From a virus: 64,000 bases of DNA. The stretch covers positions 64,001-128,000 of the IMG/VR virus record IMGVR_UViG_3300031722_000008. One strand, written 5' to 3'. The notes under the pieces were generated by a model. It was not told the origin of the DNA and ran no database searches. It saw only the letters and a program-made list of their open reading frames with translations. The position numbers and the translations under genes were made by a program. This document shows positions 31,865-50,356 of the stretch, piece after piece (the stretch's first letter is position 1; each line of letters opens with the position of its first letter).

Positions 31865-33142
31865 TTGAAATCAATTATAAGAGTGACATATATCAATTTC
31901 AAATGTCACAAGTATCTAGTTTTAGACTTCTCTAAATTAACCTGTTTAGTTGGCGCTTCGGACAAAGGTAAGTCAGCTAGTATCAAGGGAATTAAATGGT
32001 GTCTTTTTAATAAGTATTCAGGTAGTATTATTAATTTTGATGCCACACAAGCTACGGTAATAGTAGAATTTGATGATGGGACTATAATAAAAAGAAGCAT
32101 AGGTTCTGAAGATAATACTTATAATATAACTTATAGTGATGGCAGAGAACTTGAAATGAAAGACTTTGGTGCAGGAACTATAAAAGAAGTAGCAGAAGCT
32201 CATGGTATGCTGGACTCTGATTTTTTCAGAAATATAGGAAACCAATTAGACAAAGCATTCTTTTTAGGAGAAACTCCAACAAATAAAGGTGCGTTAATTG
32301 GTAAGTTAGCACAAACAGATGTTATTGATTTATCCATCAGTAATACTGGTAGTGAAATCAGAGCCAAGAATGCAAAACATAAGGAATATAAAAAAGACTT
32401 AAAAGAAACTAAGGCAAGTTTAGCTGACTTGAAAGGTCTTCCTTCTATGGAAAAAGCTATCGAGTATGCTGAGAAAAGACAAGAGAAGATATTATATTTA
32501 GAAAACAAATTAAAAAATATCAACAGTGCAGTTAAGAAATTAGGTGAATATAAATCCAAAAAAGAGCAAATGGAGAAAGTGGCATCATGTACCGATGTAT
32601 CCGAAGAAGCTATAAAATTACTTGATGAAGCTATTGATATTAATGAAAAAATAAGCACAATTAAGAAAACATTAGATTCTCTTAATTCTTATAAAAAGAA
32701 GTCTGCATCAGCTAAAGAAATAATTGACAGGGTAAGCATAGAAGATATTAGTGTTGCTATTGAGCAAATCGATGAGATTATATTATTGACAACTAATATT
32801 AAAAATATGAAAGATAGAAATGCCCGATTGAAAGAACTACTCAAAAAGAAATTTGAATTAGAGGAATTACCAAAAAGCGAAGATATTGATTCAGTTATTG
32901 AAAATTTAGATAAAGGAATAGAAATTCTAGAATCTCTATCTAGAATAAAACCTGTTAATGATAAATATAAGAAAGAAATTTTAAGAAAAGAAAATGGAGA
33001 AAAGGTTATTGAAGATTTAGACAAAAAACATGATGACGTAGTTGAAGAATACAAAAATGGATTACGTGAGTCAAAACGTTGCGAAGTATGTATGTCCGTA
33101 ATGACAGAAGAACATATTCACAATATAGAAGAATATATGTAG
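31865..33142 (+). CDS. SbcC/Rad50-like ATPase, N-terminal half (Walker A, coiled coil, zinc hook)
   Basis: INFKCH, GASDKGKS Walker A, Q-loop NQLD..F, long coiled coil, CEVC hook near C-terminus; TTG start after GAGG. Confidence 0.8.
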   Translation: MKSIIRVTYINFKCHKYLVLDFSKLTCLVGASDKGKSASIKGIKWCLFNKYSGSIINFDATQATVIVEFDDGTIIKRSIGSEDNTYNITYSDGRELEMKDFGAGTIKEVAEAHGMLDSDFFRNIGNQLDKAFFLGETPTNKGALIGKLAQTDVIDLSISNTGSEIRAKNAKHKEYKKDLKETKASLADLKGLPSMEKAIEYAEKRQEKILYLENKLKNINSAVKKLGEYKSKKEQMEKVASCTDVSEEAIKLLDEAIDINEKISTIKKTLDSLNSYKKKSASAKEIIDRVSIEDISVAIEQIDEIILLTTNIKNMKDRNARLKELLKKKFELEELPKSEDIDSVIENLDKGIEILESLSRIKPVNDKYKKEILRKENGEKVIEDLDKKHDDVVEEYKNGLRESKRCEVCMSVMTEEHIHNIEEYM

Positions 33143-33153
33143 GAGGGTCAATT

Positions 33154-36100
33154 ATGGCATGCAAATTTTATCAGTTACACGATCATACAGAGAAAAGCTT
33201 AAATGATGGTATGATTAAAGTTAAAAAGCTTGCAAAGAAATTAAAAGAACAGGGCGTAGATAAATTTGCTGTTACTGAACATGGAGAAATGATGGATATG
33301 CCCGCAGCGTATTTAGCGCTTAAAGATGAAGATATCGAACTTATCGTTGGAATGGAAACATATGTTGCTCCAAGAAAAAGAAGTGATAAGGAAAAAAGCG
33401 AAGGTGATGATGCTAATTATCATCTAGTACTTCTTGCGGAAAACAACGAAGGCTATGATAACCTTAAAATCCTTGCATCTGAAGCTGCACTGAACGGATT
33501 TTACTATAAGCCTAGAGTAGATAAGGAACTTCTTAGACAATACCATAAGGGCATCATAGCATCAAGTGCTTGTCTTGGAGGAAGTATAAATCAATTCCTT
33601 TTAGAAGATAAATATGAAGAAGCTAAATTAGAGGCTCTTGAATATTTAGATATATTTGGTGAAGGGAATTTCTTCTTAGAACTTCAAAGGCATGGACTTA
33701 GAGAACAAGAGCAGATTGAGCCTATGATTCTTAGATTAAGTAGAGAAACTGGAATACCACTCATAGCAACTAATGATTGTCATTACCTAAATAAAGAAGA
33801 TTGGGAAGCTCACGATATACTTATGGCAATTCAAGCAGGAACAACTATTGATGATACTAAGAGAAAAATTTATACTTCTCATGAGTTTTATGTAAAGTCT
33901 CCCGAAGAAATGATTCATCTGTTTCGTGACGTACCCGAAGCTATAGAAAACACCGTAAGAATAGCAGATAGGTGTCACGTTGAATTAGAATTTGGAGTTA
34001 ATAAAATACCACCATTCAAACTTCCAAATGGATACAAAGGCACGGAGAATGATTTTTTAAGGGAAATAGTTGAAGGCAATGCTAAAATAAAATATTCAGG
34101 AATATCAGAAGAAGTTCAAGAAAGAATAGATTTTGAACTTGAAGTAATTGAAAGAATGGGATATGTAAACTACTTCCTTATTAATTGGGACTTCTTTAGA
34201 TTCTGTAGAGAGGGTACTTATGAAATAGAAGATGCTCCAAATACTGATTGGGACCCAATACTAACAGGTCCTGGTAGAGGTTCGGGAGCTGGATCAATAG
34301 TTGCTTATTGTACTGATATTACTAAAATTGAACCACTCCAGTTCAATTTATTATTTGAAAGATTCTTATCGCCGGAAAGAGTATCAATGCCGGATATCGA
34401 TAGTGATTTCGAAGATACTCGAAGACAAGAAGTTATTGATTATGTTGTATATAAATATGGAAGAGAATGTATATCTCAAATAATAACTTTTGGAACACTA
34501 GCAGCGAGAGCAGTAATAAGAAGAGTGGGGAAAGCATTGGATTATCCATACGCAGTATGTGACAAAATAGCAAAATCTATACCTGCAGAAGTTGGAATAA
34601 CAATAGAAAAGGCACTGGCAGTAAATCAGTCACTTAGAAAAGCATATGATACTGATAAGAGTATAAAGCGCTTATTGGACTTCTCTATGCAATTAGAAGG
34701 TTTAGTTACTAGTTGTAGTACTCATGCGGCAGGAGTACTAATAACTGATAAGAAAGGTGTTACAGCCCATGTTCCTTTATGGGAAAATAAAGGTGGAATT
34801 GTTGCTCAATTCTCTAAGGATTATATTGAGATGCTAGGACTTCTTAAGATGGATTTCTTAGGACTTGGTACATTAGGTATTCTTGGTGATGCAAAAAGAA
34901 TGATTAGAGCAAATCATGGAGTTAATATTGATTTTGATGAATTATATAAACTACCAACAATGGAACCACTACAACTTATAAGGGATGGAAAGACTGAATG
35001 CTTATTCCAATTAAATGGAGCAGGTATGACAGCATTTATGAAAGAATTAAAGCCAAACAGTATAGAAGATATAATTCTAGGTATCTCTATGTACAGACCA
35101 GGACCTATGGCTGAAATACCAAAACTTCTATATAGTAAAAGAAATCCTAATAGTATCACATATGAGGTTGATGGACTTAAATATATTCTTGACCCTACTT
35201 ATGGAAGTATTGTATATCAGGAACAATGTATGCAAATAGTTGTTGCGATAGCAGGATTCTCTAAGGCAGACAGCGATAACTTTAGGCGTATTATATCTAA
35301 GAAGAAATTAAAAGAAATGCCAAAACAACGTGAATGGTTCGTTCATGGAAGAAAGAAAGATGATTATGATTATGAAGGGCATCTTAGGCACTACAAAGCA
35401 GATATACTAGGAGGAGTAGCTTTAGGTCATAGCGAAGAGGCACTGAATAAGTTATTCGATAAGATGGTTGACTTCGCCGCTTATGCTTTCAATAAATCCC
35501 ATGCTGCTGCTTATGCTTTTGTTGGATATTTAACTGCATGGTTTATGAAATATTATCCTGTAGAATTTATGGCTGCTAATCTTAATGCTGTTCAAAAGAA
35601 TAGAGCCAAGATTGCGCGGTATATGAATTATGCAAGGAAAGAATTGAATCTCGAAATTTTAGAGCCTGATATAAATGAATCAGTAGAAAGATTTAAAGCT
35701 ACAAAAGATGGAAAGATAATGTATACTCTATCAATAAAAGGAGCATCTATTGATTGTTTAAAGAGAATAGTCGAAGAAAGAGAAACTAATGGTAAATTCG
35801 AGAATCTTATCGATTTTATAGCTAGAACGAGAAATTTCCTAGATAAAAAGACTTATGAGGGATTAATAGGATCAGGAGCATTAAAATGTTTTGGAATAAT
35901 AAAATCTCAACATTTAGCAGCACTTGATGATTTCTGGGATGGATGCCTTAAGAAAACTAAAGATTCCGAAAAGAATGCTTTAAAGAAAAACAAAGACTTT
36001 AATTTCGAAGAAATATTGCTAGGAAAAATAGATGGATTATTACCAAATATAAATGAATATCCTAAAGATATAGATTTAAGACTTGAAAAAGAGTTCCTAG

Positions 36101-36705
36101 GAATGTATCTTACTGATAATCCATTATACAGATATGCATATACTATCAAGACTAGCAATAATTTTGAGTTATCTGATGTTGATTATGAAGTTGATGAAGA
36201 GACTGGAATTATAATGATGTCGAATGATTCAGTGAGAGATAGACAGAAAGTTAGATTTGTAACCATACTAAATGATGTAGCTGAATTAACAACAAAGAAA
36301 AAGACTTTAATGGCAAGGCTAGAATTAGAGGATTTAACAGGAATAGCTGGAGCTTTAATTTGGCCATCAACGTATGATTCAATCAAAAGTAAATTAAAGA
36401 AAAATGAAATCTACATGTGTCATGGCTACTTAATGGTATCATCAGATGAAGCACCAACCATTGTCGTTGAGGATATGGAACTTATGGAAGAAATGGTTAC
36501 AGAAAGAGCAATCATTTCAGTTGATAGTAAAGAAGATGCTGTTGATATCATTAATTACATTAACGATACTGATATGGCAAAAGGTATGACTCCGGTTTAT
36601 CTAGTTTACAATAATCTCCAAACATTACTAACTAGGAATTATTGGATAAACTTAAATCATATGAATCAAAAATATGAAAATAAAATTAAAATAAAGATTT
36701 GGTAG
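33154..36705 (+). CDS. dnaE: DNA polymerase III alpha subunit (DnaE type)
   Basis: PHP domain (H.HT..S..DG, TEHG, ATNDCHY), GPGRGSGAGS, PDIDSDF, KMDFLGL, YAFNKSHAAAY; AGGAGG RBS before MACKF. Confidence 0.95.
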   Translation: MACKFYQLHDHTEKSLNDGMIKVKKLAKKLKEQGVDKFAVTEHGEMMDMPAAYLALKDEDIELIVGMETYVAPRKRSDKEKSEGDDANYHLVLLAENNEGYDNLKILASEAALNGFYYKPRVDKELLRQYHKGIIASSACLGGSINQFLLEDKYEEAKLEALEYLDIFGEGNFFLELQRHGLREQEQIEPMILRLSRETGIPLIATNDCHYLNKEDWEAHDILMAIQAGTTIDDTKRKIYTSHEFYVKSPEEMIHLFRDVPEAIENTVRIADRCHVELEFGVNKIPPFKLPNGYKGTENDFLREIVEGNAKIKYSGISEEVQERIDFELEVIERMGYVNYFLINWDFFRFCREGTYEIEDAPNTDWDPILTGPGRGSGAGSIVAYCTDITKIEPLQFNLLFERFLSPERVSMPDIDSDFEDTRRQEVIDYVVYKYGRECISQIITFGTLAARAVIRRVGKALDYPYAVCDKIAKSIPAEVGITIEKALAVNQSLRKAYDTDKSIKRLLDFSMQLEGLVTSCSTHAAGVLITDKKGVTAHVPLWENKGGIVAQFSKDYIEMLGLLKMDFLGLGTLGILGDAKRMIRANHGVNIDFDELYKLPTMEPLQLIRDGKTECLFQLNGAGMTAFMKELKPNSIEDIILGISMYRPGPMAEIPKLLYSKRNPNSITYEVDGLKYILDPTYGSIVYQEQCMQIVVAIAGFSKADSDNFRRIISKKKLKEMPKQREWFVHGRKKDDYDYEGHLRHYKADILGGVALGHSEEALNKLFDKMVDFAAYAFNKSHAAAYAFVGYLTAWFMKYYPVEFMAANLNAVQKNRAKIARYMNYARKELNLEILEPDINESVERFKATKDGKIMYTLSIKGASIDCLKRIVEERETNGKFENLIDFIARTRNFLDKKTYEGLIGSGALKCFGIIKSQHLAALDDFWDGCLKKTKDSEKNALKKNKDFNFEEILLGKIDGLLPNINEYPKDIDLRLEKEFLGMYLTDNPLYRYAYTIKTSNNFELSDVDYEVDEETGIIMMSNDSVRDRQKVRFVTILNDVAELTTKKKTLMARLELEDLTGIAGALIWPSTYDSIKSKLKKNEIYMCHGYLMVSSDEAPTIVVEDMELMEEMVTERAIISVDSKEDAVDIINYINDTDMAKGMTPVYLVYNNLQTLLTRNYWINLNHMNQKYENKIKIKIW

Positions 36706-37025: not shown

Positions 37026-37934
37026 ATGAAAAGAGGATGGAGTGATTTACAAGAAGAAATATTAAGAGATATATGTGATATAGATTTTCTAGTTCCAATG
37101 ACTGTTATATGTTTTTTGGTTCGAAAATCAGAAACATCTATCAGATTAAAATTGAAAGAGTTAGGACTTAAACGAGCAATATCAGTATGGTCAAAATCAG
37201 ATGATAAATATATAGTTGAAAATTATCCAAATAAAAATATAATGCTAGGAACTATGAGTATTAAGCTTGGCATGTCAGAGAATGCTATTCATATAAGAGC
37301 TTCAAGATTAGGAATTAAGAGGGGAATATCAGATTTAGATCAGTATCTGATAGATAATTATGGAAAGGAAGATTGTATTCCTAAGGAAATTGCTAGTAAA
37401 TTTTGCGTGTCATTATCTCATGTTTATAATCGAGCAGCGGAGTTGAAATTAGTAACACCTCATGAATATGGAGAAACAACTACATCAAAGTATAATGAAA
37501 TCACCCAAAGATATAGCAAGGATAATACAGTAGCCCTTGCTATATCTTTGGGTGTATCTGAATATACAGTAAGAAGGATTGCAAGTAAAGAAAAAATAAG
37601 AAAAGCAAAGAAAATTAAGAAACAAAACAAAAAACCTAAAGTTAAACCTAGATGGACAAAAGAACAAGAACTTTTTCTTAAAGAAAATTATTACAAAATG
37701 ACATCTAATGATATGATGTCAATATTTCATAAATCATCTTCATCAATAAATAGTAAACTTAGGCATATGGGATTGCGAGATGGTAGCCTAAAAATATATT
37801 GTATTGGATCCATTAAGTTTACTTATATTACCGAGGAAGAAAAAAGAAGAAAATATGAATATGTTACAATGTATCTACAATTATTAAATCAAAACAAAAG
37901 GGGAGATTATTATGTCATCAGAAAAGCTAGCTAA
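37026..37934 (+). CDS. Protein with multiple Myb/HTH-like repeats
   Basis: Repeated W[ST]...D..L.ENY....IA.KLG.S...I..RA..LG[LI] units. Confidence 0.7.
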   Translation: MKRGWSDLQEEILRDICDIDFLVPMTVICFLVRKSETSIRLKLKELGLKRAISVWSKSDDKYIVENYPNKNIMLGTMSIKLGMSENAIHIRASRLGIKRGISDLDQYLIDNYGKEDCIPKEIASKFCVSLSHVYNRAAELKLVTPHEYGETTTSKYNEITQRYSKDNTVALAISLGVSEYTVRRIASKEKIRKAKKIKKQNKKPKVKPRWTKEQELFLKENYYKMTSNDMMSIFHKSSSSINSKLRHMGLRDGSLKIYCIGSIKFTYITEEEKRRKYEYVTMYLQLLNQNKRGDYYVIRKAS

Positions 37935-41410: not shown

Positions 41411-41426
41411 GTATAAGATATTAAAG
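41411..41426 (+). promoter_or_regulatory. Conserved phage promoter-like motif with multi-hairpin leader
   Basis: GTATAAGATATTAAAG; leader hairpins ATTTAACAACA/TGTTGTTAAAT and CCTTA/TAAGG. Confidence 0.7.
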
Positions 41427-41539
41427 AGAGAAAGGGTTAATAACAATTTAACAACAGGAATGTTGTTAAATATGTCCTTAGAGATAAGGGTTTATATTCC
41501 TTTGTCTCTTAATTTTATTTTAAAAATGGAGGAAGAAAT

Positions 41540-42484
41540 ATGATAATTAATAATGAAAACTTCGGAGAAGTTGTAGCAAAAATGTTAAGGGCGGCATCAG
41601 AATATCACAAGGCAGAGAGATTTGATACTTGTGGTATTATTTTTGACAAAGATGATAACTCATTAAAACTAATCTCAGTTTGGTTCTTTGTTAGAGTTAC
41701 AAATGTAAAGATTGAAATTGATATTCCTAGAGGAAAGCCATTTTATAATGTTTTAGGAAAAGTATGGACAGAAATTCCTTATGAGAAACCAGTTGAATAT
41801 TACATGGAAAAAAGAGCTGAAAGTTATAACTTCGTAGGAAGAACAGAATACTATGCAAATAATATATTAAATATTATCAACAAGGAAACTGAGAAAGTAT
41901 TGGATTTAAGAGCAAGATATGTATTTGTTCAAGGATTTTTACCTCAAGGCTGTGCAGCAATAACTTTCAAAGAAGAAAATGGAAAGCCAGTATTTAAAGC
42001 GCCTAAGATACCAAAGAAATTTGTCATTGATGAAAATTCAGCAATTCCTGAAAAATTTGTTCAACCTGGGATTACTTATGCATGTACATTAAATGATTGC
42101 GGAGATACTGTAACTCTTGATGTAATAACAAAATTCGGAAAAACTAGATCAGGTATGTTCGTTTCAGAAGTTAAGTATGATAGTAAATGCCTACCTAGAT
42201 TAAATAATTTAGAAATAATTCACCCTGAACTAACTGTATGTTCTAATATATTAGAAACATCAGATGAAGAAATTAATATGCCACCAATACATCTAGGTGC
42301 TATGTTATTGTATGATTTGCTTAAAATACTTTTAATTTGCAAAACATCTAAATTCAACCTACATTATCAAGAAAAAATAAATGATGATATATGGATAGAA
42401 TCTGTACCAGAAGATGATGATGACGCAAAAGTATCTATATTCTTCCCTCCTTATGATTACTATAAAAATATTCAAAGAGGATAA
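41540..42484 (+). CDS. Putative highly diverged sliding clamp (DnaN-like fold)
   Basis: N-terminus MIINNENFGEVVAKMLRAAS...CGIIFDKDDNSLKLIS and C-terminus IHLGAMLLYDLLKIL...FNLHY...IWIES...VSIFFP follow DnaN domain patterns; by-eye alignment only. Confidence 0.45.
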   Translation: MIINNENFGEVVAKMLRAASEYHKAERFDTCGIIFDKDDNSLKLISVWFFVRVTNVKIEIDIPRGKPFYNVLGKVWTEIPYEKPVEYYMEKRAESYNFVGRTEYYANNILNIINKETEKVLDLRARYVFVQGFLPQGCAAITFKEENGKPVFKAPKIPKKFVIDENSAIPEKFVQPGITYACTLNDCGDTVTLDVITKFGKTRSGMFVSEVKYDSKCLPRLNNLEIIHPELTVCSNILETSDEEINMPPIHLGAMLLYDLLKILLICKTSKFNLHYQEKINDDIWIESVPEDDDDAKVSIFFPPYDYYKNIQRG

Positions 42485-42488
42485 ATAA

Positions 42489-43034
42489 ATGCAAGAGGAT
42501 TACCTAACAATGATTATAGCTAAAGACAAAAACTTATGGCCTAATCCTGAGAATATAGATGTTGAAGATATAGATAAATCCATATTTAACTACTTGGAAG
42601 AAAGAGAGCATTTAAATACTCCTAGGAATCAAGAGAAATTCTCAGAAACAGTTAACGATTTTTATCACATGGCACAAGAAGAATTTTTCGAAGAGAACGA
42701 AGAATACTTGATTCCTTCGCCACAAATAATTAGCGATATGATAGATGAAGAAAACATCAATATCATATCGCTATTTGTATTAGATACAGAAAAAAGAAAT
42801 AGCGAGGATAGGATAGAGAATATAATTAATATTTATATAAAAGAAATATCCTCTCAACTATTATATTCTGTCATAGAAGCATTAGATACTCTAGGACTAC
42901 CCTTCTCCGATAAAGATCATCCAAATGATAAGGCAGTATCGGAGGTGAGAAATAAATGCTTTTATGACCCTTATCAAATAAGAATGTTTGGAGATGAAAT
43001 ATATGACAGAAGGAAAATTGATAGAAATTGTTAG
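42489..43034 (+). CDS. Acidic paralog 1 with QxxMF motif (QIRMF)
   Basis: LIPSPQII...LDTLGLPF...DPYQIRMFGDEI. Confidence 0.7.
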   Translation: MQEDYLTMIIAKDKNLWPNPENIDVEDIDKSIFNYLEEREHLNTPRNQEKFSETVNDFYHMAQEEFFEENEEYLIPSPQIISDMIDEENINIISLFVLDTEKRNSEDRIENIINIYIKEISSQLLYSVIEALDTLGLPFSDKDHPNDKAVSEVRNKCFYDPYQIRMFGDEIYDRRKIDRNC

Positions 43035-43626
43035 CGATAAATTACCTGATGGAGTTCAGGATTTTGACAATATAGAAAATAGAATGGTTTTGTCATGGAC
43101 TGGTGATATGCCAGAAAATATGAAAGAAGTAAATGAATATATAATAGGGGATATATATAAGGAAGAGTGCATAAATAAACAAGGTATCCCTGAATTCGAT
43201 GATCTTTTGGAAAGTGTTGATATTCTTAATTCTGAATGTATGGCAGAGATAGCTCTCATACAAGTAGTTCAAGAATATAATGAACAAGGTATTGATATTG
43301 GAGATGTATCGGAAGAGAAACTCTCAGAAGATACAGCAGAGAAGGAAGCTGGAGTCCTAGACTTCTATAGTTATAATGGAATGATTGATACTAAACAAGA
43401 AATATTTAATTATGCTGAAGAAAAAGGTATGAGTTTCATGATATCAAATCATACAGAGGAGTATGATAATTTTACATGGGGAATTGAAATGTCAGAAGAA
43501 TCACAACTAGACATTATAGTTAATGGACCTCAAATACCAATGTTTCCAGAATTAGCTGTAGATGAATGTGAAAATGATTTTTGTAGATACGGTGGTTTCT
43601 TTCTACATGTATCGGAGGCTGTATAA
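43003..43626 (+). CDS. Acidic paralog 2 with QxxMF motif (QIPMF)
   Basis: GIPEFDDL...AEEKGMSF...NGPQIPMFPEL; start at MTEGK after GGAG. Confidence 0.7.
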   Translation: MTEGKLIEIVSDKLPDGVQDFDNIENRMVLSWTGDMPENMKEVNEYIIGDIYKEECINKQGIPEFDDLLESVDILNSECMAEIALIQVVQEYNEQGIDIGDVSEEKLSEDTAEKEAGVLDFYSYNGMIDTKQEIFNYAEEKGMSFMISNHTEEYDNFTWGIEMSEESQLDIIVNGPQIPMFPELAVDECENDFCRYGGFFLHVSEAV

Positions 43627-44331
43627 ATGAACGATATTATTATAAGATCTGACGAAGATGAAATTGTAGACAAAAGACTAGCTGAATTAACAAATCTACT
43701 TATCGTGGATAGTGATGAGTCTTCAGAAAAATATGTCAAGGAATTAATTGAGGAATTAAATAATATACCAAAATCAGGAATACCATGCTTAAGTGATATT
43801 CTTCAACCAATGATAGATAATAACGATACTGTTATTGATATTATCATGAAAACCCTAATAGTAAATGATAGAGTTGATATGCCAACAGATTGTGATAGAG
43901 GGGCTACAGACAGATCATCATGTGCAGAATGCGAAGAACTCTGCGAGTGCTATGAAGATTTAGATTACGAGATAAGACTTGATGAATTTCCACAATGTGA
44001 TGATACTCACTTGGCATACTTATTATATTACATTCTTGTGAATACAGGTATGAGTATGATTATGGAAAAGGATGATTACAATGCGTTCCCAGACTTCTGT
44101 ATGCATTTTGATTACGATAATGAGGGAATTTTATCAGACTACTTCACTGGAACAGAAAATAAAAACAAGGTAATAGTAAATCATGCTCAACAAATGATGT
44201 TCTCTGAAATATTTATGGAAGAGAATAATCAGAATGGGAGTTGCTATTGTTATGGGCAAAACTTCGCAATAATGTTTGATAATTACAATATACAGGAAGA
44301 AAGATTAGCCTTAAAGGAAGGAGGTAAATAA
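43627..44331 (+). CDS. Acidic paralog 3 with QxxMF motif (QQMMF) and Cys cluster
   Basis: GIPCLSDI...CAECEELCEC...LVNTGMSM...NHAQQMMFSEI. Confidence 0.7.
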   Translation: MNDIIIRSDEDEIVDKRLAELTNLLIVDSDESSEKYVKELIEELNNIPKSGIPCLSDILQPMIDNNDTVIDIIMKTLIVNDRVDMPTDCDRGATDRSSCAECEELCECYEDLDYEIRLDEFPQCDDTHLAYLLYYILVNTGMSMIMEKDDYNAFPDFCMHFDYDNEGILSDYFTGTENKNKVIVNHAQQMMFSEIFMEENNQNGSCYCYGQNFAIMFDNYNIQEERLALKEGGK

Positions 44332-44957
44332 TGTCAATACAATTAAGAGAGGATATTTTCTCAGAATATATAGATGAAAAAAATCCAGAAATAATATATA
44401 CAGCGAATCCAAATTCTTTACTTATGATAAAGGATATCATTCTGGAACAACTTAATAACAGAGGAGAGGCTTCGTTAGAATGGATAATAAGTGATATTCA
44501 TTTTGGTAATGCAAGAGTATTTGAAAATATAGCAGCTAAAGGTTTTGATACAGGGAAATTTGATATAGGTAACTTTGATAATTATGGTGATGGAATTACT
44601 GAAATGGCTGATGATATAGAACAATGGTATTTTGTTGAAGATGAATTAACAGAATTAGAAAACCTAATATATGAGTCAGCTAAACAATTTGACTTACCTG
44701 TATATATGACAGCAGAGCAGGTAGATGAATACCCAACTTTTATAAGAAGATTCTCTGAAGAAAATTCTTATCTGGACTGCATAGCTAAAGAAAAAGAGAT
44801 AAAGGTCAATGCATTCCATGCACAAATTCCAATGTTTGATGATCTATTCGATAACTGCGGAAGTTGTTTTTATGGAAGAGAAAATGTGCTATTAATTGAT
44901 GAATACAATAAAAATAGGAATTATGGATTAATGGAGGGTAGCGATGAAAGAAGATAA
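44331..44957 (+). CDS. Acidic paralog 4 with QxxMF motif (QIPMF)
   Basis: ...AFHAQIPMFDDL; GSC.Y shared with paralog 3. Confidence 0.7.
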   Translation: MSIQLREDIFSEYIDEKNPEIIYTANPNSLLMIKDIILEQLNNRGEASLEWIISDIHFGNARVFENIAAKGFDTGKFDIGNFDNYGDGITEMADDIEQWYFVEDELTELENLIYESAKQFDLPVYMTAEQVDEYPTFIRRFSEENSYLDCIAKEKEIKVNAFHAQIPMFDDLFDNCGSCFYGRENVLLIDEYNKNRNYGLMEGSDERR

Positions 44958-45630
44958 ATCTCTCCGGATAATAAATCCAGACATCGATATGCTTGAAATG
45001 CAATCAGAAATTATAGGCATAAATGAAGATAATTTCGAAAGAGATAAGAACACTATATTGGAAATGTATAAATCGGAATATACGAAATATAAGGATCGCG
45101 CAAACATACCTCTTTTTTCTGATATAGAAAATTCTGTTCTCGCTTATAATTATGACAAGTGTTATGAAATATCAGTTATTGAATTTGAAACATTTGATAA
45201 AGCAGAAGTTATGAATACATTTTATAGCTCTGCTTATTGTTCCACAATGGACATAAATGATAGAATACAGGCGATACTAGATCAGAAGACAGGTAATATG
45301 ATGAATGATATAGGGTGGTCACATTCCGAAGCTATAAGAATGTGTATAAGGAATTCACTAAATGAATTGGGTGTTATTTATGAAGATAATGATCCTTGTA
45401 ATCCATTCCTCCGAAATATATTTGCAGATTTTAATATTTTCAGAATAGTAGCTAATAATGCTCAAATAGTAATGTTTCCGGACATACATAGACAGGAGTA
45501 TATGTATGATGCGGACTTAATCAATGATACTTTAGATGATATTACAAACTATGTCATAGAAAGAAGAACACAGAGCGCAATAAAAGATAGGTTGCTTGGT
45601 TCTGGGGGTGATAAAAATGTCCCAAAGTAA
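44944..45630 (+). CDS. Acidic paralog 5 with QxxMF motif (QIVMF)
   Basis: NIPLFSDI...LNELGVIY...NNAQIVMFPDI. Confidence 0.7.
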   Translation: MKEDKSLRIINPDIDMLEMQSEIIGINEDNFERDKNTILEMYKSEYTKYKDRANIPLFSDIENSVLAYNYDKCYEISVIEFETFDKAEVMNTFYSSAYCSTMDINDRIQAILDQKTGNMMNDIGWSHSEAIRMCIRNSLNELGVIYEDNDPCNPFLRNIFADFNIFRIVANNAQIVMFPDIHRQEYMYDADLINDTLDDITNYVIERRTQSAIKDRLLGSGGDKNVPK

Positions 45631-45976
45631 AGAGATAACTAAATCTATGCTCCGAAACAGAGGACTAATTATGCAAGATACGGAAAACAATACTTTTGTT
45701 GAAATCGTATCATCAAATTATATAGTTTGTATAAATCGAAGAATAAAAAAGGGACAAACTATAGTTCCTGAATATTACGAAATCAGCGACGAGTGCTTGG
45801 AGTTCATTGCTGACCATGGAATAAAAACTGTTACATGGAACGGCATGATATTAAATGCTATGTCAGCTCTAGATTTATCATTAAAAGATGTACTTGAAGA
45901 TGAAGGTTTTATTTTTGAATATAACCGAGAAATAGTGAATCCTTATCAGCAGATTATGTTCGAGGATTTAAATTAA
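45617..45976 (+). CDS. Paralog 6 with C-terminal QxxMF motif (QQIMF)
   Basis: LEDEGFIF...NPYQQIMFEDLN-stop; start MSQSK after GGGGGTG. Confidence 0.7.
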   Translation: MSQSKEITKSMLRNRGLIMQDTENNTFVEIVSSNYIVCINRRIKKGQTIVPEYYEISDECLEFIADHGIKTVTWNGMILNAMSALDLSLKDVLEDEGFIFEYNREIVNPYQQIMFEDLN

Positions 45977-45990
45977 GGAAGGTGTAAATA

Positions 45991-46365
45991 ATGAGTAAAA
46001 GCATTATAGAAATAGAAGATAGTCAGCTTCAAAAAGAAGCTAGATGGGAGGACGTAGAAAAGATTATACTCAACACATACAATGAACTTTTTGATAAGGA
46101 TAAGAAAGAACCGAGCATAAGCAGAGTATTCGATGAAATTAAATATAAGTTTGAAACTGAAGCATATGACATTATCTACGGAATATCAGCAGAAGACATT
46201 ACAGAAGAAATGATAATGGTATGTCTTACGAAAAAGGGCTGTGTATTCACATGGTGCGGAACAGTATGTTGTGAAGCGCAACAAGTGATGTTTGGGGAGA
46301 TATACGAACAATTAGAAGGAGATTTCATCAGCTACAATAATAATATCATAGGTCTTCATGAGTGA
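45991..46365 (+). CDS. Acidic paralog 7 with QxxMF motif (QQVMF)
   Basis: EPSISRVF...LTKKGCVF...CEAQQVMFGEI. Confidence 0.7.
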   Translation: MSKSIIEIEDSQLQKEARWEDVEKIILNTYNELFDKDKKEPSISRVFDEIKYKFETEAYDIIYGISAEDITEEMIMVCLTKKGCVFTWCGTVCCEAQQVMFGEIYEQLEGDFISYNNNIIGLHE

Positions 46366-47011
46366 TATAGATAAAAGTGATGTTGTATTTAAATCTCTGT
46401 CATGTTTTAAATCCATGTTAAAATATGACAGAGTTAATCCCCAAATATTTCTTCATAATAAATCAGCTTATATGCTCGGAGAAAAAACGAAAGGAAAGAT
46501 AGAATTTTTAAATAGGAGCTTTGAAACTTTAGTGGGTATACCATTCAATAAAGGTTTCGAGTATTCAGAAAATATAACAAACAAGATTTTAAGTGAGAAT
46601 ATCAATATAATTAATAAGTTAGCCAGGACTTATTGCGAAACTCTATTTTATATTGATAAGGTAAAGTTAATTAAATTCATTGACGATAATTATAATTCTT
46701 TAGCAAAGTTAAATAAAATGAAATTAACTATAACAACTGTGCCTCATATAAGGTTTAATTTTAAGCCTATAAAAAAATCTACTTCAGTGTTTGAGAGTGA
46801 ATATATTATTTCAGAACCTGTAAGAGTGAGTCCAAACTTTAGAGTAAAAGATGAAGAGATTGTTTTAAATTCTCTTCTTTTTTATGAAGTTATAAATAAT
46901 GAACTTTTTTCACAAATAATAAAAATGGAGATAAACAAAGAAAAGAAATTTATAAGATTAGCTTGTGTTAATGATAATGTAAAAGTTAAGTTTATAATTA
47001 ACCAAAGATAA
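46358..47011 (+). CDS. Second putative diverged clamp-like protein (about two DnaN-like domains)
   Basis: FYIDKVKLIKFIDD...KMKLTIT...IRFN...EEIVLNSLLFYEVIN...IKMEIN...FIRL...VKFII follows DnaN domain III pattern; by-eye only. Confidence 0.4.
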   Translation: MSDIDKSDVVFKSLSCFKSMLKYDRVNPQIFLHNKSAYMLGEKTKGKIEFLNRSFETLVGIPFNKGFEYSENITNKILSENINIINKLARTYCETLFYIDKVKLIKFIDDNYNSLAKLNKMKLTITTVPHIRFNFKPIKKSTSVFESEYIISEPVRVSPNFRVKDEEIVLNSLLFYEVINNELFSQIIKMEINKEKKFIRLACVNDNVKVKFIINQR

Positions 47012-47092
47012 AGTCTAGAAATTGCTTAACGTGTTCGGCAAATAATGGTATCATTAACATTGAACACTAAAAAGAGATGGGGGATTGGCACA

Positions 47093-50000
47093 ATGGATAA
47101 ACTAGAATGGTACGAGAGCGTTGAAAATAAGATCAATGAAGATATTGATTTGTTTTATGGTGAGTTTTATAGCGGAGCAAAACCTAAAAAGATAGGACCT
47201 GATAGCTATAGAATTAATCCATGTCCAGTATGTGGACATTCTAATAGTTGCACATTAACAGGAAATACTGTTCATTGTTTCAGTGGTGAATGTGGATGGA
47301 AAGGAACACATATTACGGCATGGTATGAATATGCAAAAGAAAAGCTCAATTTGTCACTTTACGAGGCGGTGGCGAAGTTAGAAAAATTCACAGGATATAA
47401 GTTTCCAGCTGGAACAAAAGAAGAAATAGAAGCTTATGAGAAGCATCAGAAACAACAAGCAATTTTGAGAATTTCAGAAGATTTTTACCACAAACAGCTT
47501 TTAATATGTAATTTGACTTTTCCTTTCAAAGATAAGAGATACACACCACTTGATTATATGTTACAAGTAAGAAAAAGAAAGATAGAAACCTTGAAGGATT
47601 TTAAAGTTGGATTTGCTATTAATTACTTTGGATTAAGAAGTGAATTATTGGAACAAGGATTTACGAAAGAAGAAATTAAAGAAGGAAAAGCATGGCAACC
47701 AGAAGGAACTTTTGTGTTCTTCTATAGGCATCCATTAACAAAGGATATTGTAAGGACAAATATTAAAAATCCATTTGGGTCAAAATCTAAAGAAAAAAAT
47801 GAGTTAGGTCAAAGTATAGATGGCGATGTTATTGTTGGATATTCTACTGGAAGTAAGTTTATGTATTTTCCTCCGAATTTCTCCTTCGATAAAGATATTA
47901 CTATAGTTGAAGGGGAGCATGATGTATTTGCTGCCTATGAAAATGGATTTAATGTAGCTGGTGTTGGAGGACAAATAGAAAGAGAATACCAATTATCTGT
48001 ATTGGATAAGGCAAAAGAAAATATAACCTTTCATACGATGTATGATAATGATGATGCTGGAAGTAAATATACTGAATTCACTAATGAATATTTTGCTGAC
48101 AGGCCAGTAAAGAAAATAAAATATGATGAAGCATTCAATGATCCTGATGAATATTTCAGAGAGTGCGAAAATCACAAATCCCTTGAAGAATTATTTGAAT
48201 TTGCAGAAACATTAACTACTGACAAATATAAGATTCGCAGACAAGGTAACTTATGGACTGTAGCAACGAGAGAAAGAAAACTTGAATTTACCATGAAAGG
48301 CAAAAATGATAAAGGTTCTTTCAGTGGAAATGCTGTATATTATTATAATGGTCTATTAAGCGATAGAGATGATAATATACAACTCGTAAAATGCAAAGCT
48401 AAGATAAAGCCATTAAACTTTTATTTATATGACCATATAGAAGAGTATTTTAATAGTAATTTAGATAAGAAAAGCATCGATGAATTAATATTGATATATT
48501 CAATGTCAGCGAAGAAAGATGAGATAATTAAAAGATTAGCCGAAATGTTATTTGAGTCAGAAAATGATGAGTCTATTATAAATAACATGAAAGTTCAATT
48601 AAGTAAGCATGTAACGAATCATGAGAATGTTGTTGATGAAATACTTAAAGAGGTTAATGATATACAGAATAAGGCTAATACAACATCGTTATCGAACATA
48701 CCTAAAATGCGTGTTGGACAATACTACAATGTGAGAAACGGTGATGCTTATATGTATTTTACTTATGTAAAAATCGATGGTGATATAAAAAGAAAATTAC
48801 CTTTCCTGCTTAGGAATGATGGAACACTAATAAGACTCGATCTATTAAAAAGAAAGGATTCTCAATGCTTGCTTCTTATTGATAATAAGTATGAACTTCC
48901 ATGGGAAATAAATGATGCTATTCTAGAACTTAATGAGTGTTGCTTGACTCAAGAATGGGTAGAGAAATATAAAGATGGCAAAATATCAGATAGTGAATTA
49001 GAACCTTCAATACTTATAAAGAGAATAGAGGGTTATATTAGGAAATTTTATTATACTAATGATTCAAATATCTACAAGGTGCTATCTCTCTATATATATT
49101 CAACCTACTCATATGAATTATTTGCACAAATACCATATCTTTATTTAAATGGTTCTAAGGGTTCAGGTAAGTCAATTCTAGATGAATGCATTAGATTATT
49201 ATCCTTTAATTCAAAGATGGCTGTAGACATAACTGAAGCAGCATTATTCAGAACACTATCTGTTGAAGGAGGAGTATTAATACTTGATGAGCAGGAAAAC
49301 TTAAATTCTAAAAATGCGAGAACTACTGATAGTGGTATGGCAGCAATACTGAAAGGTGGCTACGCAAGAAGTGGTGCAGTATATAGAGTTAACAATGAAA
49401 AAGGGGGCATAGTAGAGAAATATACTATCTACGGACCTAAGGTTATATCCAACATAATGGGAATGGATGATGTAATTGAGGATAGATGTATAATAATTGA
49501 AACATATGCCCTTAAATTGACTAAAGAAACTAAAATGGAAGATCCTAAATATTACGCGGAAGAAAGATTAGATGAAATAAGAGAACTCACAAGTAAATGT
49601 GCGATCTCTGCCCTGAAAAATTTCAAGACGCTATATGATATATATAATGGTAACTTATTCGAAACAGGGAATGCACGTTTATCGCAAATACTAACTCCTA
49701 TATTAGCTGTAGCTAAATTGGTTGATTTGAGAGAAAAAGAAAATGCATTATCTACTAATCCAGATATAAAAGATTATATCGGAGAATATGAAAGATCATT
49801 AATGGATTATTTTGTTATACTGAATGAGCTTAAAAAGAATACTGCTCAAAGTACTCCAGAGGGTATAATAAAATCTTCTGTATCTACAGTTGCAAAAGAA
49901 CTCTGGGGATTAGTTCCACCTCACAATATAGAATTTATAGATTCGTCATCACATAAATATACCGAAGCTATAAAATGCGATAAGGAGCAAGGCTGGTTCG

Positions 50001-50305
50001 AAATCAATGTACTTCACTTTAAATGTTTCATCGAAGAAGTTAAACCTGGAGAAACAGCTTATGCTAGATATATTCCTAAATGGATTAAGACTGTTTTCAA
50101 AATCGATGCATGCGATATAAAAAGAAAAGCTGTGCATATTGAAAATGAAGATTTGATGAAAGAATTTAAAGGTAATGTAAAACCTAAGGTAAACTTTTAT
50201 AGGTTTTATTTTAAAGACTATATAAACATGGATGAAGCATTTTTCGGCAACAGCAAAGAAAATGATTCAGCTATTAAGACCGATAAAGGGGCAGAACTAT
50301 TTTAG
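47093..50305 (+). CDS. Primase-helicase fusion (zinc finger, TOPRIM, P-loop ATPase)
   Basis: CPVCGH...CFSGECG; VEGEHD...YDNDDAG...DPDEY; GSKGSGKS Walker A, LILDEQE Walker B. Confidence 0.85.
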   Translation: MDKLEWYESVENKINEDIDLFYGEFYSGAKPKKIGPDSYRINPCPVCGHSNSCTLTGNTVHCFSGECGWKGTHITAWYEYAKEKLNLSLYEAVAKLEKFTGYKFPAGTKEEIEAYEKHQKQQAILRISEDFYHKQLLICNLTFPFKDKRYTPLDYMLQVRKRKIETLKDFKVGFAINYFGLRSELLEQGFTKEEIKEGKAWQPEGTFVFFYRHPLTKDIVRTNIKNPFGSKSKEKNELGQSIDGDVIVGYSTGSKFMYFPPNFSFDKDITIVEGEHDVFAAYENGFNVAGVGGQIEREYQLSVLDKAKENITFHTMYDNDDAGSKYTEFTNEYFADRPVKKIKYDEAFNDPDEYFRECENHKSLEELFEFAETLTTDKYKIRRQGNLWTVATRERKLEFTMKGKNDKGSFSGNAVYYYNGLLSDRDDNIQLVKCKAKIKPLNFYLYDHIEEYFNSNLDKKSIDELILIYSMSAKKDEIIKRLAEMLFESENDESIINNMKVQLSKHVTNHENVVDEILKEVNDIQNKANTTSLSNIPKMRVGQYYNVRNGDAYMYFTYVKIDGDIKRKLPFLLRNDGTLIRLDLLKRKDSQCLLLIDNKYELPWEINDAILELNECCLTQEWVEKYKDGKISDSELEPSILIKRIEGYIRKFYYTNDSNIYKVLSLYIYSTYSYELFAQIPYLYLNGSKGSGKSILDECIRLLSFNSKMAVDITEAALFRTLSVEGGVLILDEQENLNSKNARTTDSGMAAILKGGYARSGAVYRVNNEKGGIVEKYTIYGPKVISNIMGMDDVIEDRCIIIETYALKLTKETKMEDPKYYAEERLDEIRELTSKCAISALKNFKTLYDIYNGNLFETGNARLSQILTPILAVAKLVDLREKENALSTNPDIKDYIGEYERSLMDYFVILNELKKNTAQSTPEGIIKSSVSTVAKELWGLVPPHNIEFIDSSSHKYTEAIKCDKEQGWFEINVLHFKCFIEEVKPGETAYARYIPKWIKTVFKIDACDIKRKAVHIENEDLMKEFKGNVKPKVNFYRFYFKDYINMDEAFFGNSKENDSAIKTDKGAELF

Positions 50306-50340: not shown

Positions 50341-50356
50341 GTATAAGATATTAAAG
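50341..50356 (+). promoter_or_regulatory. Conserved phage promoter-like motif
   Basis: GTATAAGATATTAAAG plus AAAAGAAAGAGAG leader. Confidence 0.7.

Follow-up and report, generated by a model that had tools for sequence, protein, structure and literature searches.

A putative phage sliding-clamp system with two predicted clamp-fold proteins and seven acidic QxxMF paralogs

Why would a phage keep seven small acidic proteins in a row, each with the same type of pentapeptide toward its C-terminus, directly ahead of its primase? The question is raised by a 64,000-nucleotide stretch (hereafter the window) that comprises bases 64001-128000 of the virus record IMGVR_UViG_3300031722_000008, a 160,540-bp genome with direct terminal repeats that is rated 100 % complete. 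Nine plus-strand open reading frames (ORFs) cover 41540-47011 of the window, with overlaps or gaps of a few bases. A preliminary description, made from the letters alone, had reported seven consecutive acidic ORFs with QxxMF between two clamp-like genes, preceded by a promoter motif and followed by a primase-helicase, and had offered two explanations: a phage clamp with its own clients, or hijacking of the host clamp. All nine ORFs, all seven motifs and both bordering elements were recovered in our analysis. We favor the first explanation, at a probability of roughly 60 %: the unit at 41411-50305 would be a phage-specific sliding-clamp system with its own expanded family of cleft-binding partners.

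A motif-bearing family and its flanking proteins

The seven acidic ORFs (42489-46365; isoelectric point (pI) 4.1-4.7) carry QxxMF 4 to 50 residues from the C-terminus. Paralog 1 (42489-43034; 181 amino acids (aa), pI 4.3) reads QIRMF at residue 163. Paralog 2 (42988-43626; pI 4.1) reads QIPMF at residue 182 of a 212-aa product counted from a TTG start, and its true start is probably an ATG a few codons past this TTG at 42988. QQMMF stands at residue 188 of paralog 3 (43627-44331; 234 aa, pI 4.1), QIPMF at residue 165 of paralog 4 (44331-44957; 208 aa, pI 4.2), which is the copy taken for complex prediction, and QIVMF at residue 174 of paralog 5 (44944-45630; 228 aa, pI 4.5). The short paralog 6 (45596-45976) has QQIMF 4 residues from its C-terminus; because the gene caller's product is 101 aa, translation probably begins at 45617 or 45671. 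In paralog 7 (45991-46365; 124 aa, pI 4.4), QQVMF is found at residue 97. Paralog 3 and its orthologs additionally hold a Cys-rich insert (C-x2-C ... C-x-C, residues ~88-115), which is not in the other paralogs and may form a small metal-binding knuckle.

The motif is concentrated in these genes. Among all ORFs of at least 40 aa in the whole genome, QxxMF occurs eight times, with ~2.3 occurrences expected from composition, and seven of the eight fall in the block. The remaining one, QNDMF, lies inside NrdD and was rejected as a clamp client, being taken as a chance match. With this copy set aside, no other real gene of the phage contains QxxMF, and none contains QxxLF.

Profile comparison bears out the view, already taken in the preliminary description, that these ORFs form one expanded, fast-diverging family with a shared IP...D helix and L...G.hF turn. 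Using hhalign on the ortholog groups, paralogs 2-5 were linked over their full length at 95-99 % probability, pairs 5-7 and 6-7 at 96 %, pair 1-5 at 81 % and pair 1-6 at 66 %, while neither flanking protein matched any paralog. The seven ORFs are therefore homologous, and the motif was kept within one family rather than acquired seven times. A core of ~100 residues is evident from the short paralogs 6 and 7; it consists of a helix 'IPxxxEIxD' with an invariant Pro, an 'LxxxG.hF' element with an invariant Leu (P41 and L79 in alignment A6), a hairpin and then QxxMF. Related metagenomic phage contigs that carry these genes, designated here by L-numbers, extend the family further. The pentapeptide Q-x-x-[LM]-F, of the beta-clamp type, is present in all 57 motif-bearing paralogs, with Q and F invariant and position 4 occupied by Met in 45 and Leu in 12; the logo over these sequences reads [IV]-h-h-N-[HP]-A-Q-[IQL]-[VI]-[ML]-F-[PED]-[DE]-L-[FY]. 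This is not a PIP box (Qxx[ILM]xx[FY][FY]), as position 7 of the logo is D/E and position 8 is L. In the first six genomes, QxxMF is kept in 43 of 43 paralogs, and two divergent copies elsewhere lack the motif (paralog 6 of L012, which reads RIKVF, and paralog 1 of L014). The short paralogs place the motif 3-11 residues from the C-terminus, as many clamp clients do.

The two flanking proteins had been said to follow DnaN-domain residue patterns; their likeness to clamps holds in structure and fails in sequence. Protein A (41540-42484; 314 aa, pI 5.4) was modeled by AlphaFold2 from an alignment of 17 relatives with a predicted local distance difference test (pLDDT) value of 88.7 and a predicted template modeling score (pTM) of 0.84, and comprises two predicted clamp domains plus ~100 extra residues. 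Foldseek gave 170 matches at E ≤ 1e-3, all the top ones being PCNA, beta clamp, a 9-1-1 subunit or the PCNA of African swine fever virus (ASFV). VIA-align superposed 205 residues on positions ~129-377 (domains II and III) of the bacterial beta clamp (Z 14.4; root-mean-square deviation (rmsd) 3.9), and all 50 among the matches listed are DnaN; neighbors in ESM Atlas and BFVD are DnaN, PCNA and phage clamps. Protein B (46358-47011; 217 aa, basic, pI 9.4), modeled from 12 relatives (pLDDT 90.4, pTM 0.88), is predicted to adopt a compact two-domain fold resembling PCNA and gp45. Its 459 Foldseek matches at the same threshold are headed by ASFV PCNA, yeast PCNA and 9-1-1, and VIA alignments cover 185-193 of the 217 residues (185-188 at an rmsd of 2.7-3.0); Hus1 and yeast PCNA both score Z 15.2, and DnaN domains II and III score 14.6-15.0.

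A two-domain clamp fold is thus confirmed by structure prediction for both proteins, whereas sequence-family membership failed. Neither matched Pfam at E ≤ 1, its DnaN and PCNA models included, and PHROG likewise gave nothing. The DnaN model PF00712 found nothing in the whole genome at E ≤ 10, and a search of Protein Data Bank (PDB) sequences with the 314-aa family profile found no clamp. Between the two flanking proteins themselves, hhalign detected no similarity (probability 0.5 %). Weak Pfam matches to BPA, Amidase_2 and START_2 among the nine proteins were far below cut-offs.

Predicted docking and the polymerase contact

We modeled the 314-aa protein (alignment A2), the 217-aa protein (A3) and paralog 4 with 14 relatives (A4) as a three-chain complex in which the paralog was the scored partner. 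The ipSAE score was 0.87 (0.87, 0.88 and 0.86 in individual runs), against 0.06 for the best of three controls; in calibration, the mark applied was reached by 58 of 80 solved complexes and by 2 of 110 mismatched pairs. The three runs share at least 79 % of their contacts, and the partner has a pLDDT of at least 78. Swapping the 314-aa chain for an unrelated protein reduced the score to 0.00, and the 217-aa chain meets the paralog with a single residue, which identifies the 314-aa protein as the predicted receptor.

The lowest-error contacts join Q165, I166, M168 and F169 of paralog 4 to clamp residues 47-50 and 301-306. Besides these, clamp residues 20-27, 81-92, 251-259 and 309-313 and paralog residues 176-186 take part, and the predicted interface totals ~43 clamp residues with 120-130 confident contacts. 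On the clamp side, many basic residues (R17, K24, R27, K91, R92, K212, K309 and R313) face the very acidic partner. In the VIA register, which is approximate and places model residues 2-307 on E. coli beta 129-366, clamp segments 20-27, 45-50 and 301-307 correspond to E. coli beta ~147-154, 172-177 and 360-366. The known peptide cleft of E. coli beta comprises residues 152-155, 172-177, 242-247 and 360-366, onto which the contacted segments 20-27, 47-50, 251-259 and 301-306 roughly fall, so QIPMF is modeled at positions that roughly match the canonical beta-clamp cleft. Docking of the motif on the phage clamp is, in this sense, supported by prediction.

From these models, a mechanism may be proposed in which two clamp-fold proteins bracket seven acidic paralogs and each paralog acts as a dedicated partner of the 314-aa protein. 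Each QxxMF would insert into a hydrophobic cleft made by the two domains and the C-terminal tail of that protein, with the rest of the paralog C-terminal domain packing on the same clamp face. Were all seven to use one cleft, they would have to compete for it or occupy it in turn, for which the bacterial 'tool-belt' clamp is a precedent. The divergent N-terminal and central parts could then make the same clamp serve seven distinct purposes, such as the recruitment or regulation of replisome or transcription components or the control of clamp loading. That seven orthogroups are kept with the same motif, and that no phage enzyme bears it, suggests interchangeable occupants of one cleft with different outputs. 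We infer ring formation, use of the clamp by the phage polymerase and the role of each paralog.

The polymerase itself may bear on this mechanism. The phage encodes a Pol III alpha subunit, DnaE (33079-36705, plus strand; 1208 aa), with PHP, polymerase, finger, HhH and OB domains. In the linker before LEKE.LG.YL.DNPLY (window 35910-36125), where bacterial DnaE has its internal clamp motif, the phage protein and three orthologs share F[DN]FE instead, with Qxx[LM]F missing. The DnaE of a human-gut phage contig (L010, 14995-18456), 45 % identical, reads QMTLF at the same place, and this contig contains no homolog of any of the nine block genes. The clade so appears to have changed its polymerase-clamp contact while carrying its own clamp-fold genes. 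The gene is also subject to rearrangement: the ortholog in L003 (3390-8189) is interrupted by an intein with a LAGLIDADG endonuclease and that in L005 (1602-6613) is split around a free-standing LAGLIDADG gene, whereas the window copy is uninterrupted.

A more radical form of the proposal, which we regard as unlikely though worth stating, is that clamp docking has been outsourced altogether. With no replication or repair enzyme bearing the motif, the seven acidic adaptors would each link a different enzyme or process to a heteromeric phage clamp, or would jointly replace an AAA+ loader by ATP-free opening or chaperoning. If true, this would be a new way of organizing a replisome hub.

Conservation among relatives and competing explanations

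Relatives of the block are few and metagenomic. For the 314-aa protein, 17 relatives at 36-82 % identity were recovered, every one of them an unannotated metagenomic sequence. Paralog 4, searched exhaustively with HMMER, yielded ten clusters only, besides an ankyrin-repeat false positive, and a scan of JGI metagenomes added one further locus. Neither clamp protein, nor alignment A2 of the 314-aa family, found a relative in IMG/VR scans, and megablast and tblastn gave no match to the block among GenBank phages.

Where relatives exist, gene order is kept: DnaE is followed after a few genes by the 314-aa gene, and then come seven or eight paralogs, a ~215-aa gene and the primase. At least nine contigs have the full order (L002, L003, L004, L006, L007 and L016-L019) and others hold partial arrays (L005 and L012-L015). 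The preliminary description knew of no reported system with this layout, and we encountered none in the phage collections or papers searched. L002 (8921-9671) and L013 (2269-3022) have an eighth paralog that arose by tandem duplication of paralog 7, and the array is therefore not restricted to seven members. Between L006 and L016, the clamp is 88 % identical, paralog 4 55 % and paralog 6 85 %, an unevenness along the block that suggests mosaic exchange within the array.

The paralogs diverge faster than the clamp, with orthologs 23-57 % identical where the 314-aa protein is 50-68 % identical. Between two related genomes, the ratio of nonsynonymous to synonymous substitution rates (dN/dS) is 0.08-0.18 for the seven of nine genes with estimable dS, which is saturated for paralogs 3 and 5; by this computation, the block genes are under purifying selection. 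Position 4 of the motif varies by genome. In the distant phage L012, six of six motif-bearing paralogs read QxxLF, L013 mixes Met and Leu, and both paralogs on the L015 contig read QxxLF. L015 is the sole L-type genome with clamp and paralogs both on a contig, and the C-terminal tail of its clamp differs. A concerted Met-to-Leu switch within a genome fits one shared receptor.

Several considerations weigh against a phage clamp with its own partners. Paralog binding rests on the confidence of a model, and because beta-clamp-peptide complexes are abundant among solved structures, the placement of QxxMF may partly reflect model memory. The control partners carried no clamp motif, and three chains with custom alignments differ from the calibration set. 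The predicted interface on the 314-aa protein is not more conserved than the remainder (mean entropy 1.51 vs 1.26 elsewhere; one-sided Mann-Whitney p = 0.97). None of the seven paralogs matched Pfam or PHROG below E 0.01, and paralog profiles A5 and A6 reached a best E of 0.2 against PDB sequences. The ESM Atlas neighbors of paralogs 4 and 7 were discarded as meaningless, the Atlas models being poor (pLDDT 0.35 and 0.51). In paralogs 2-5, the motif lies between conserved strands (hhhN before, YG..N after) and could therefore be partly a structural element. Lastly, searches with PF13177 and PF00004 detected no AAA+ loader or delta/delta' homologue in the genome; a match to PF13177 (DNA_pol3_delta2) beside NrdD, at 14 bits and in a frame with a stop, was dismissed as noise. 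A diverged loader or that of the host may serve instead. Loaders accompany less than half of viral processivity factors, some of which form no closed ring (PMC4889955).

The best-surviving alternative, though an improbable one, is the host-clamp hijack that the preliminary description had set beside the phage clamp. The QxxMF paralogs would occupy host DnaN and stop or redirect host replication and repair, and the phage clamps would serve DnaE through another motif. Qxx[ML]F is indeed the canonical bacterial beta-clamp motif, and a phage DnaE without it implies that the polymerase can do without this motif. Binding of host DnaN by phage proteins is also known, an example being Twort Gp168 (PDB 7evp, among the fold matches of the 314-aa protein). 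The complex prediction, however, puts the motif on the phage 314-aa protein with a signal that depends on that chain, and synteny between the paralogs and the phage clamp genes is strict. One inhibitor would also suffice, yet seven orthogroups are kept under purifying selection. Of the two explanations first offered, the docking of QIPMF of paralog 4 on the 314-aa protein thus favors a phage clamp with its own clients over hijacking.

Also improbable, and ranking below hijacking, is a structural role in which QxxMF belongs to the hydrophobic core of a novel small domain, the proteins serve a clamp-unrelated function (anti-defense, DNA mimicry or host takeover) and their position is incidental. 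The strand-like segments around the motif, the lack of detectable homology to known clamp clients and the unremarkable conservation of the clamp interface all speak for it. In most genomes, however, paralogs 1, 6 and 7 end 3-14 residues past the motif, where a core element would not usually lie, and all paralogs of one genome switch Met to Leu together. The complex score is high with clean controls, and strict synteny with both clamp genes extends across clamp identities of 36-100 %. The dependence of the complex signal on one chain, the strictness of synteny and the concerted Met-to-Leu change disfavor both this explanation and hijacking.

Least probable is a sub-case of the phage-clamp reading itself, in which the paralogs are ATP-independent clamp openers or chaperones that act like the delta 'wrench', keep a protomer open or monomeric and hand it to DNA: the missing AAA+ and delta/delta' homologues, the large domain-to-domain interface that exceeds a peptide in a groove, its many basic clamp residues opposite a very acidic partner and the precedent of E. 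coli delta, which binds the cleft by an LF embedded in a folded domain, would suit such a role, but seven openers for one clamp are not parsimonious, and the scarcity of loaders among viral processivity factors noted above also tells against it.

Transcription, phage setting and known clamps

The phage-clamp reading is compatible with how the unit appears to be transcribed. A 16-mer, GTATAAGATATTAAAG, at 41411-41426 on the plus strand heads the unit, and its next exact copy lies at 50341, just past the gene for the primase-helicase (47045-50305, plus strand; 1086 aa, Toprim domain), which is the last gene of the unit. The genome has 25 copies at no more than two mismatches, all on the plus strand between genome positions 3 kb and 114 kb, with window sites that include 40704, 41411 and 50341. 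Judged by sequence, GTATAAGATATTAAAG is likely a phage-specific promoter, and the copies at 41411 and 50341 fit such a promoter driving a single unit from the 314-aa gene through the primase. A terminator-like hairpin at 41480-41509 (11 pairs and a T-run) lies between the 16-mer and the start codon of the 314-aa gene, and could be an attenuator or the end of an upstream unit. A scan for sigma-70 promoters returned counts equal to those of shuffled sequence and was uninformative.

The phage has a GC content of ~31 % and nearly all its genes on the plus strand. It also encodes a SNF2-type helicase and, outside the window (genome 8030-12175 region), NrdD with an ATP-cone, a radical-SAM protein that is likely its activase, and ThyX. 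Together, NrdD with its ATP-cone, the nearby radical-SAM protein and ThyX point to an anaerobic host, which fits the peat metagenome source. In a search of sequencing runs, near-identical DNA was found in peat metagenome runs and, in part, in wastewater runs, and no RNA run was among those listed. Following DnaE, a 302-aa gene (37026-37934) has orthologs with faint Sigma70_r4_2 and HTH matches, the window copy having no Pfam match; its product could be a transcription factor inside the replication module.

How would such a system compare with characterized clamps? Clients of the bacterial beta clamp dock through QL[SD]LF-type motifs, as in DnaE (QADMF), delta, Hda, Pol II/IV/V and MutS/L. The 314-aa protein superposes on DnaN domains II and III, the two that form the peptide cleft, and the paralogs likewise have Q-x-x-[ML]-F, predicted at the equivalent cleft and C-terminal tail. 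It differs from DnaN in having two domains rather than three, ~10 % identity and no Pfam match. Instead of enzymes, its predicted partners are seven members of a single family of small acidic proteins whose genes adjoin that of the clamp, and the phage DnaE, unlike its bacterial counterpart, lacks the clamp motif.

T4 offers another precedent. Its gp45 is also a phage-encoded two-domain clamp and a hub for several small partners; gp43, gp33, gp55 and other proteins bind it by C-terminal hydrophobic tails, and gp33, small and acidic, serves as an adaptor between the clamp and RNA polymerase. The present proteins have no sequence relation to gp45 (no PHROG match). T4 has one clamp gene and the gp44/62 loader, whereas here there are two clamp-fold genes and no detectable loader, and the T4 partners are unrelated to each other, whereas here they form a tandem paralog family.

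More than one diverged two-domain clamp paralog per genome is also seen in Sulfolobus PCNA1-2-3 and in Rad9-Hus1-Rad1, and the 217-aa protein finds some of its best structural matches in Hus1 and Rad9. The two phage proteins differ in having no detectable mutual sequence similarity, and a ring shared by them is conjecture. The two-domain 'PolIII beta-like processivity factors' of Bacillus phages (~217 aa; e.g. vB_BcM_Sam46, pW4), compared by structure only, are similar in size and predicted fold and are among the best viral matches to the 314-aa model, the one model for which BFVD was searched. Twort Gp168 is also a phage protein that binds a beta-type clamp; inhibitors of this type, however, are single genes that target host DnaN, whereas here the predicted receptor is phage-encoded. 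A further precedent is phage Mu, which is reported to use the host clamp for late transcription (PMC12867686).

These comparisons frame what the locus may mean. This phage lineage, which encodes a Pol III alpha of its own, seems to have built a private clamp hub around two clamp-fold proteins too divergent for sequence annotation and a seven-member family in which the docking motif is the sole invariant feature. Replication and repair are organized by sliding clamps and short docking motifs, as is late transcription in T4 and Mu. Should the predicted binding hold, nature would have supplied seven ligands that compete for a single clamp cleft, and the block would offer a route to how a clamp works without a recognizable loader. 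It would also recall that clamps lie concealed in many 'hypothetical' blocks of phage replication modules.

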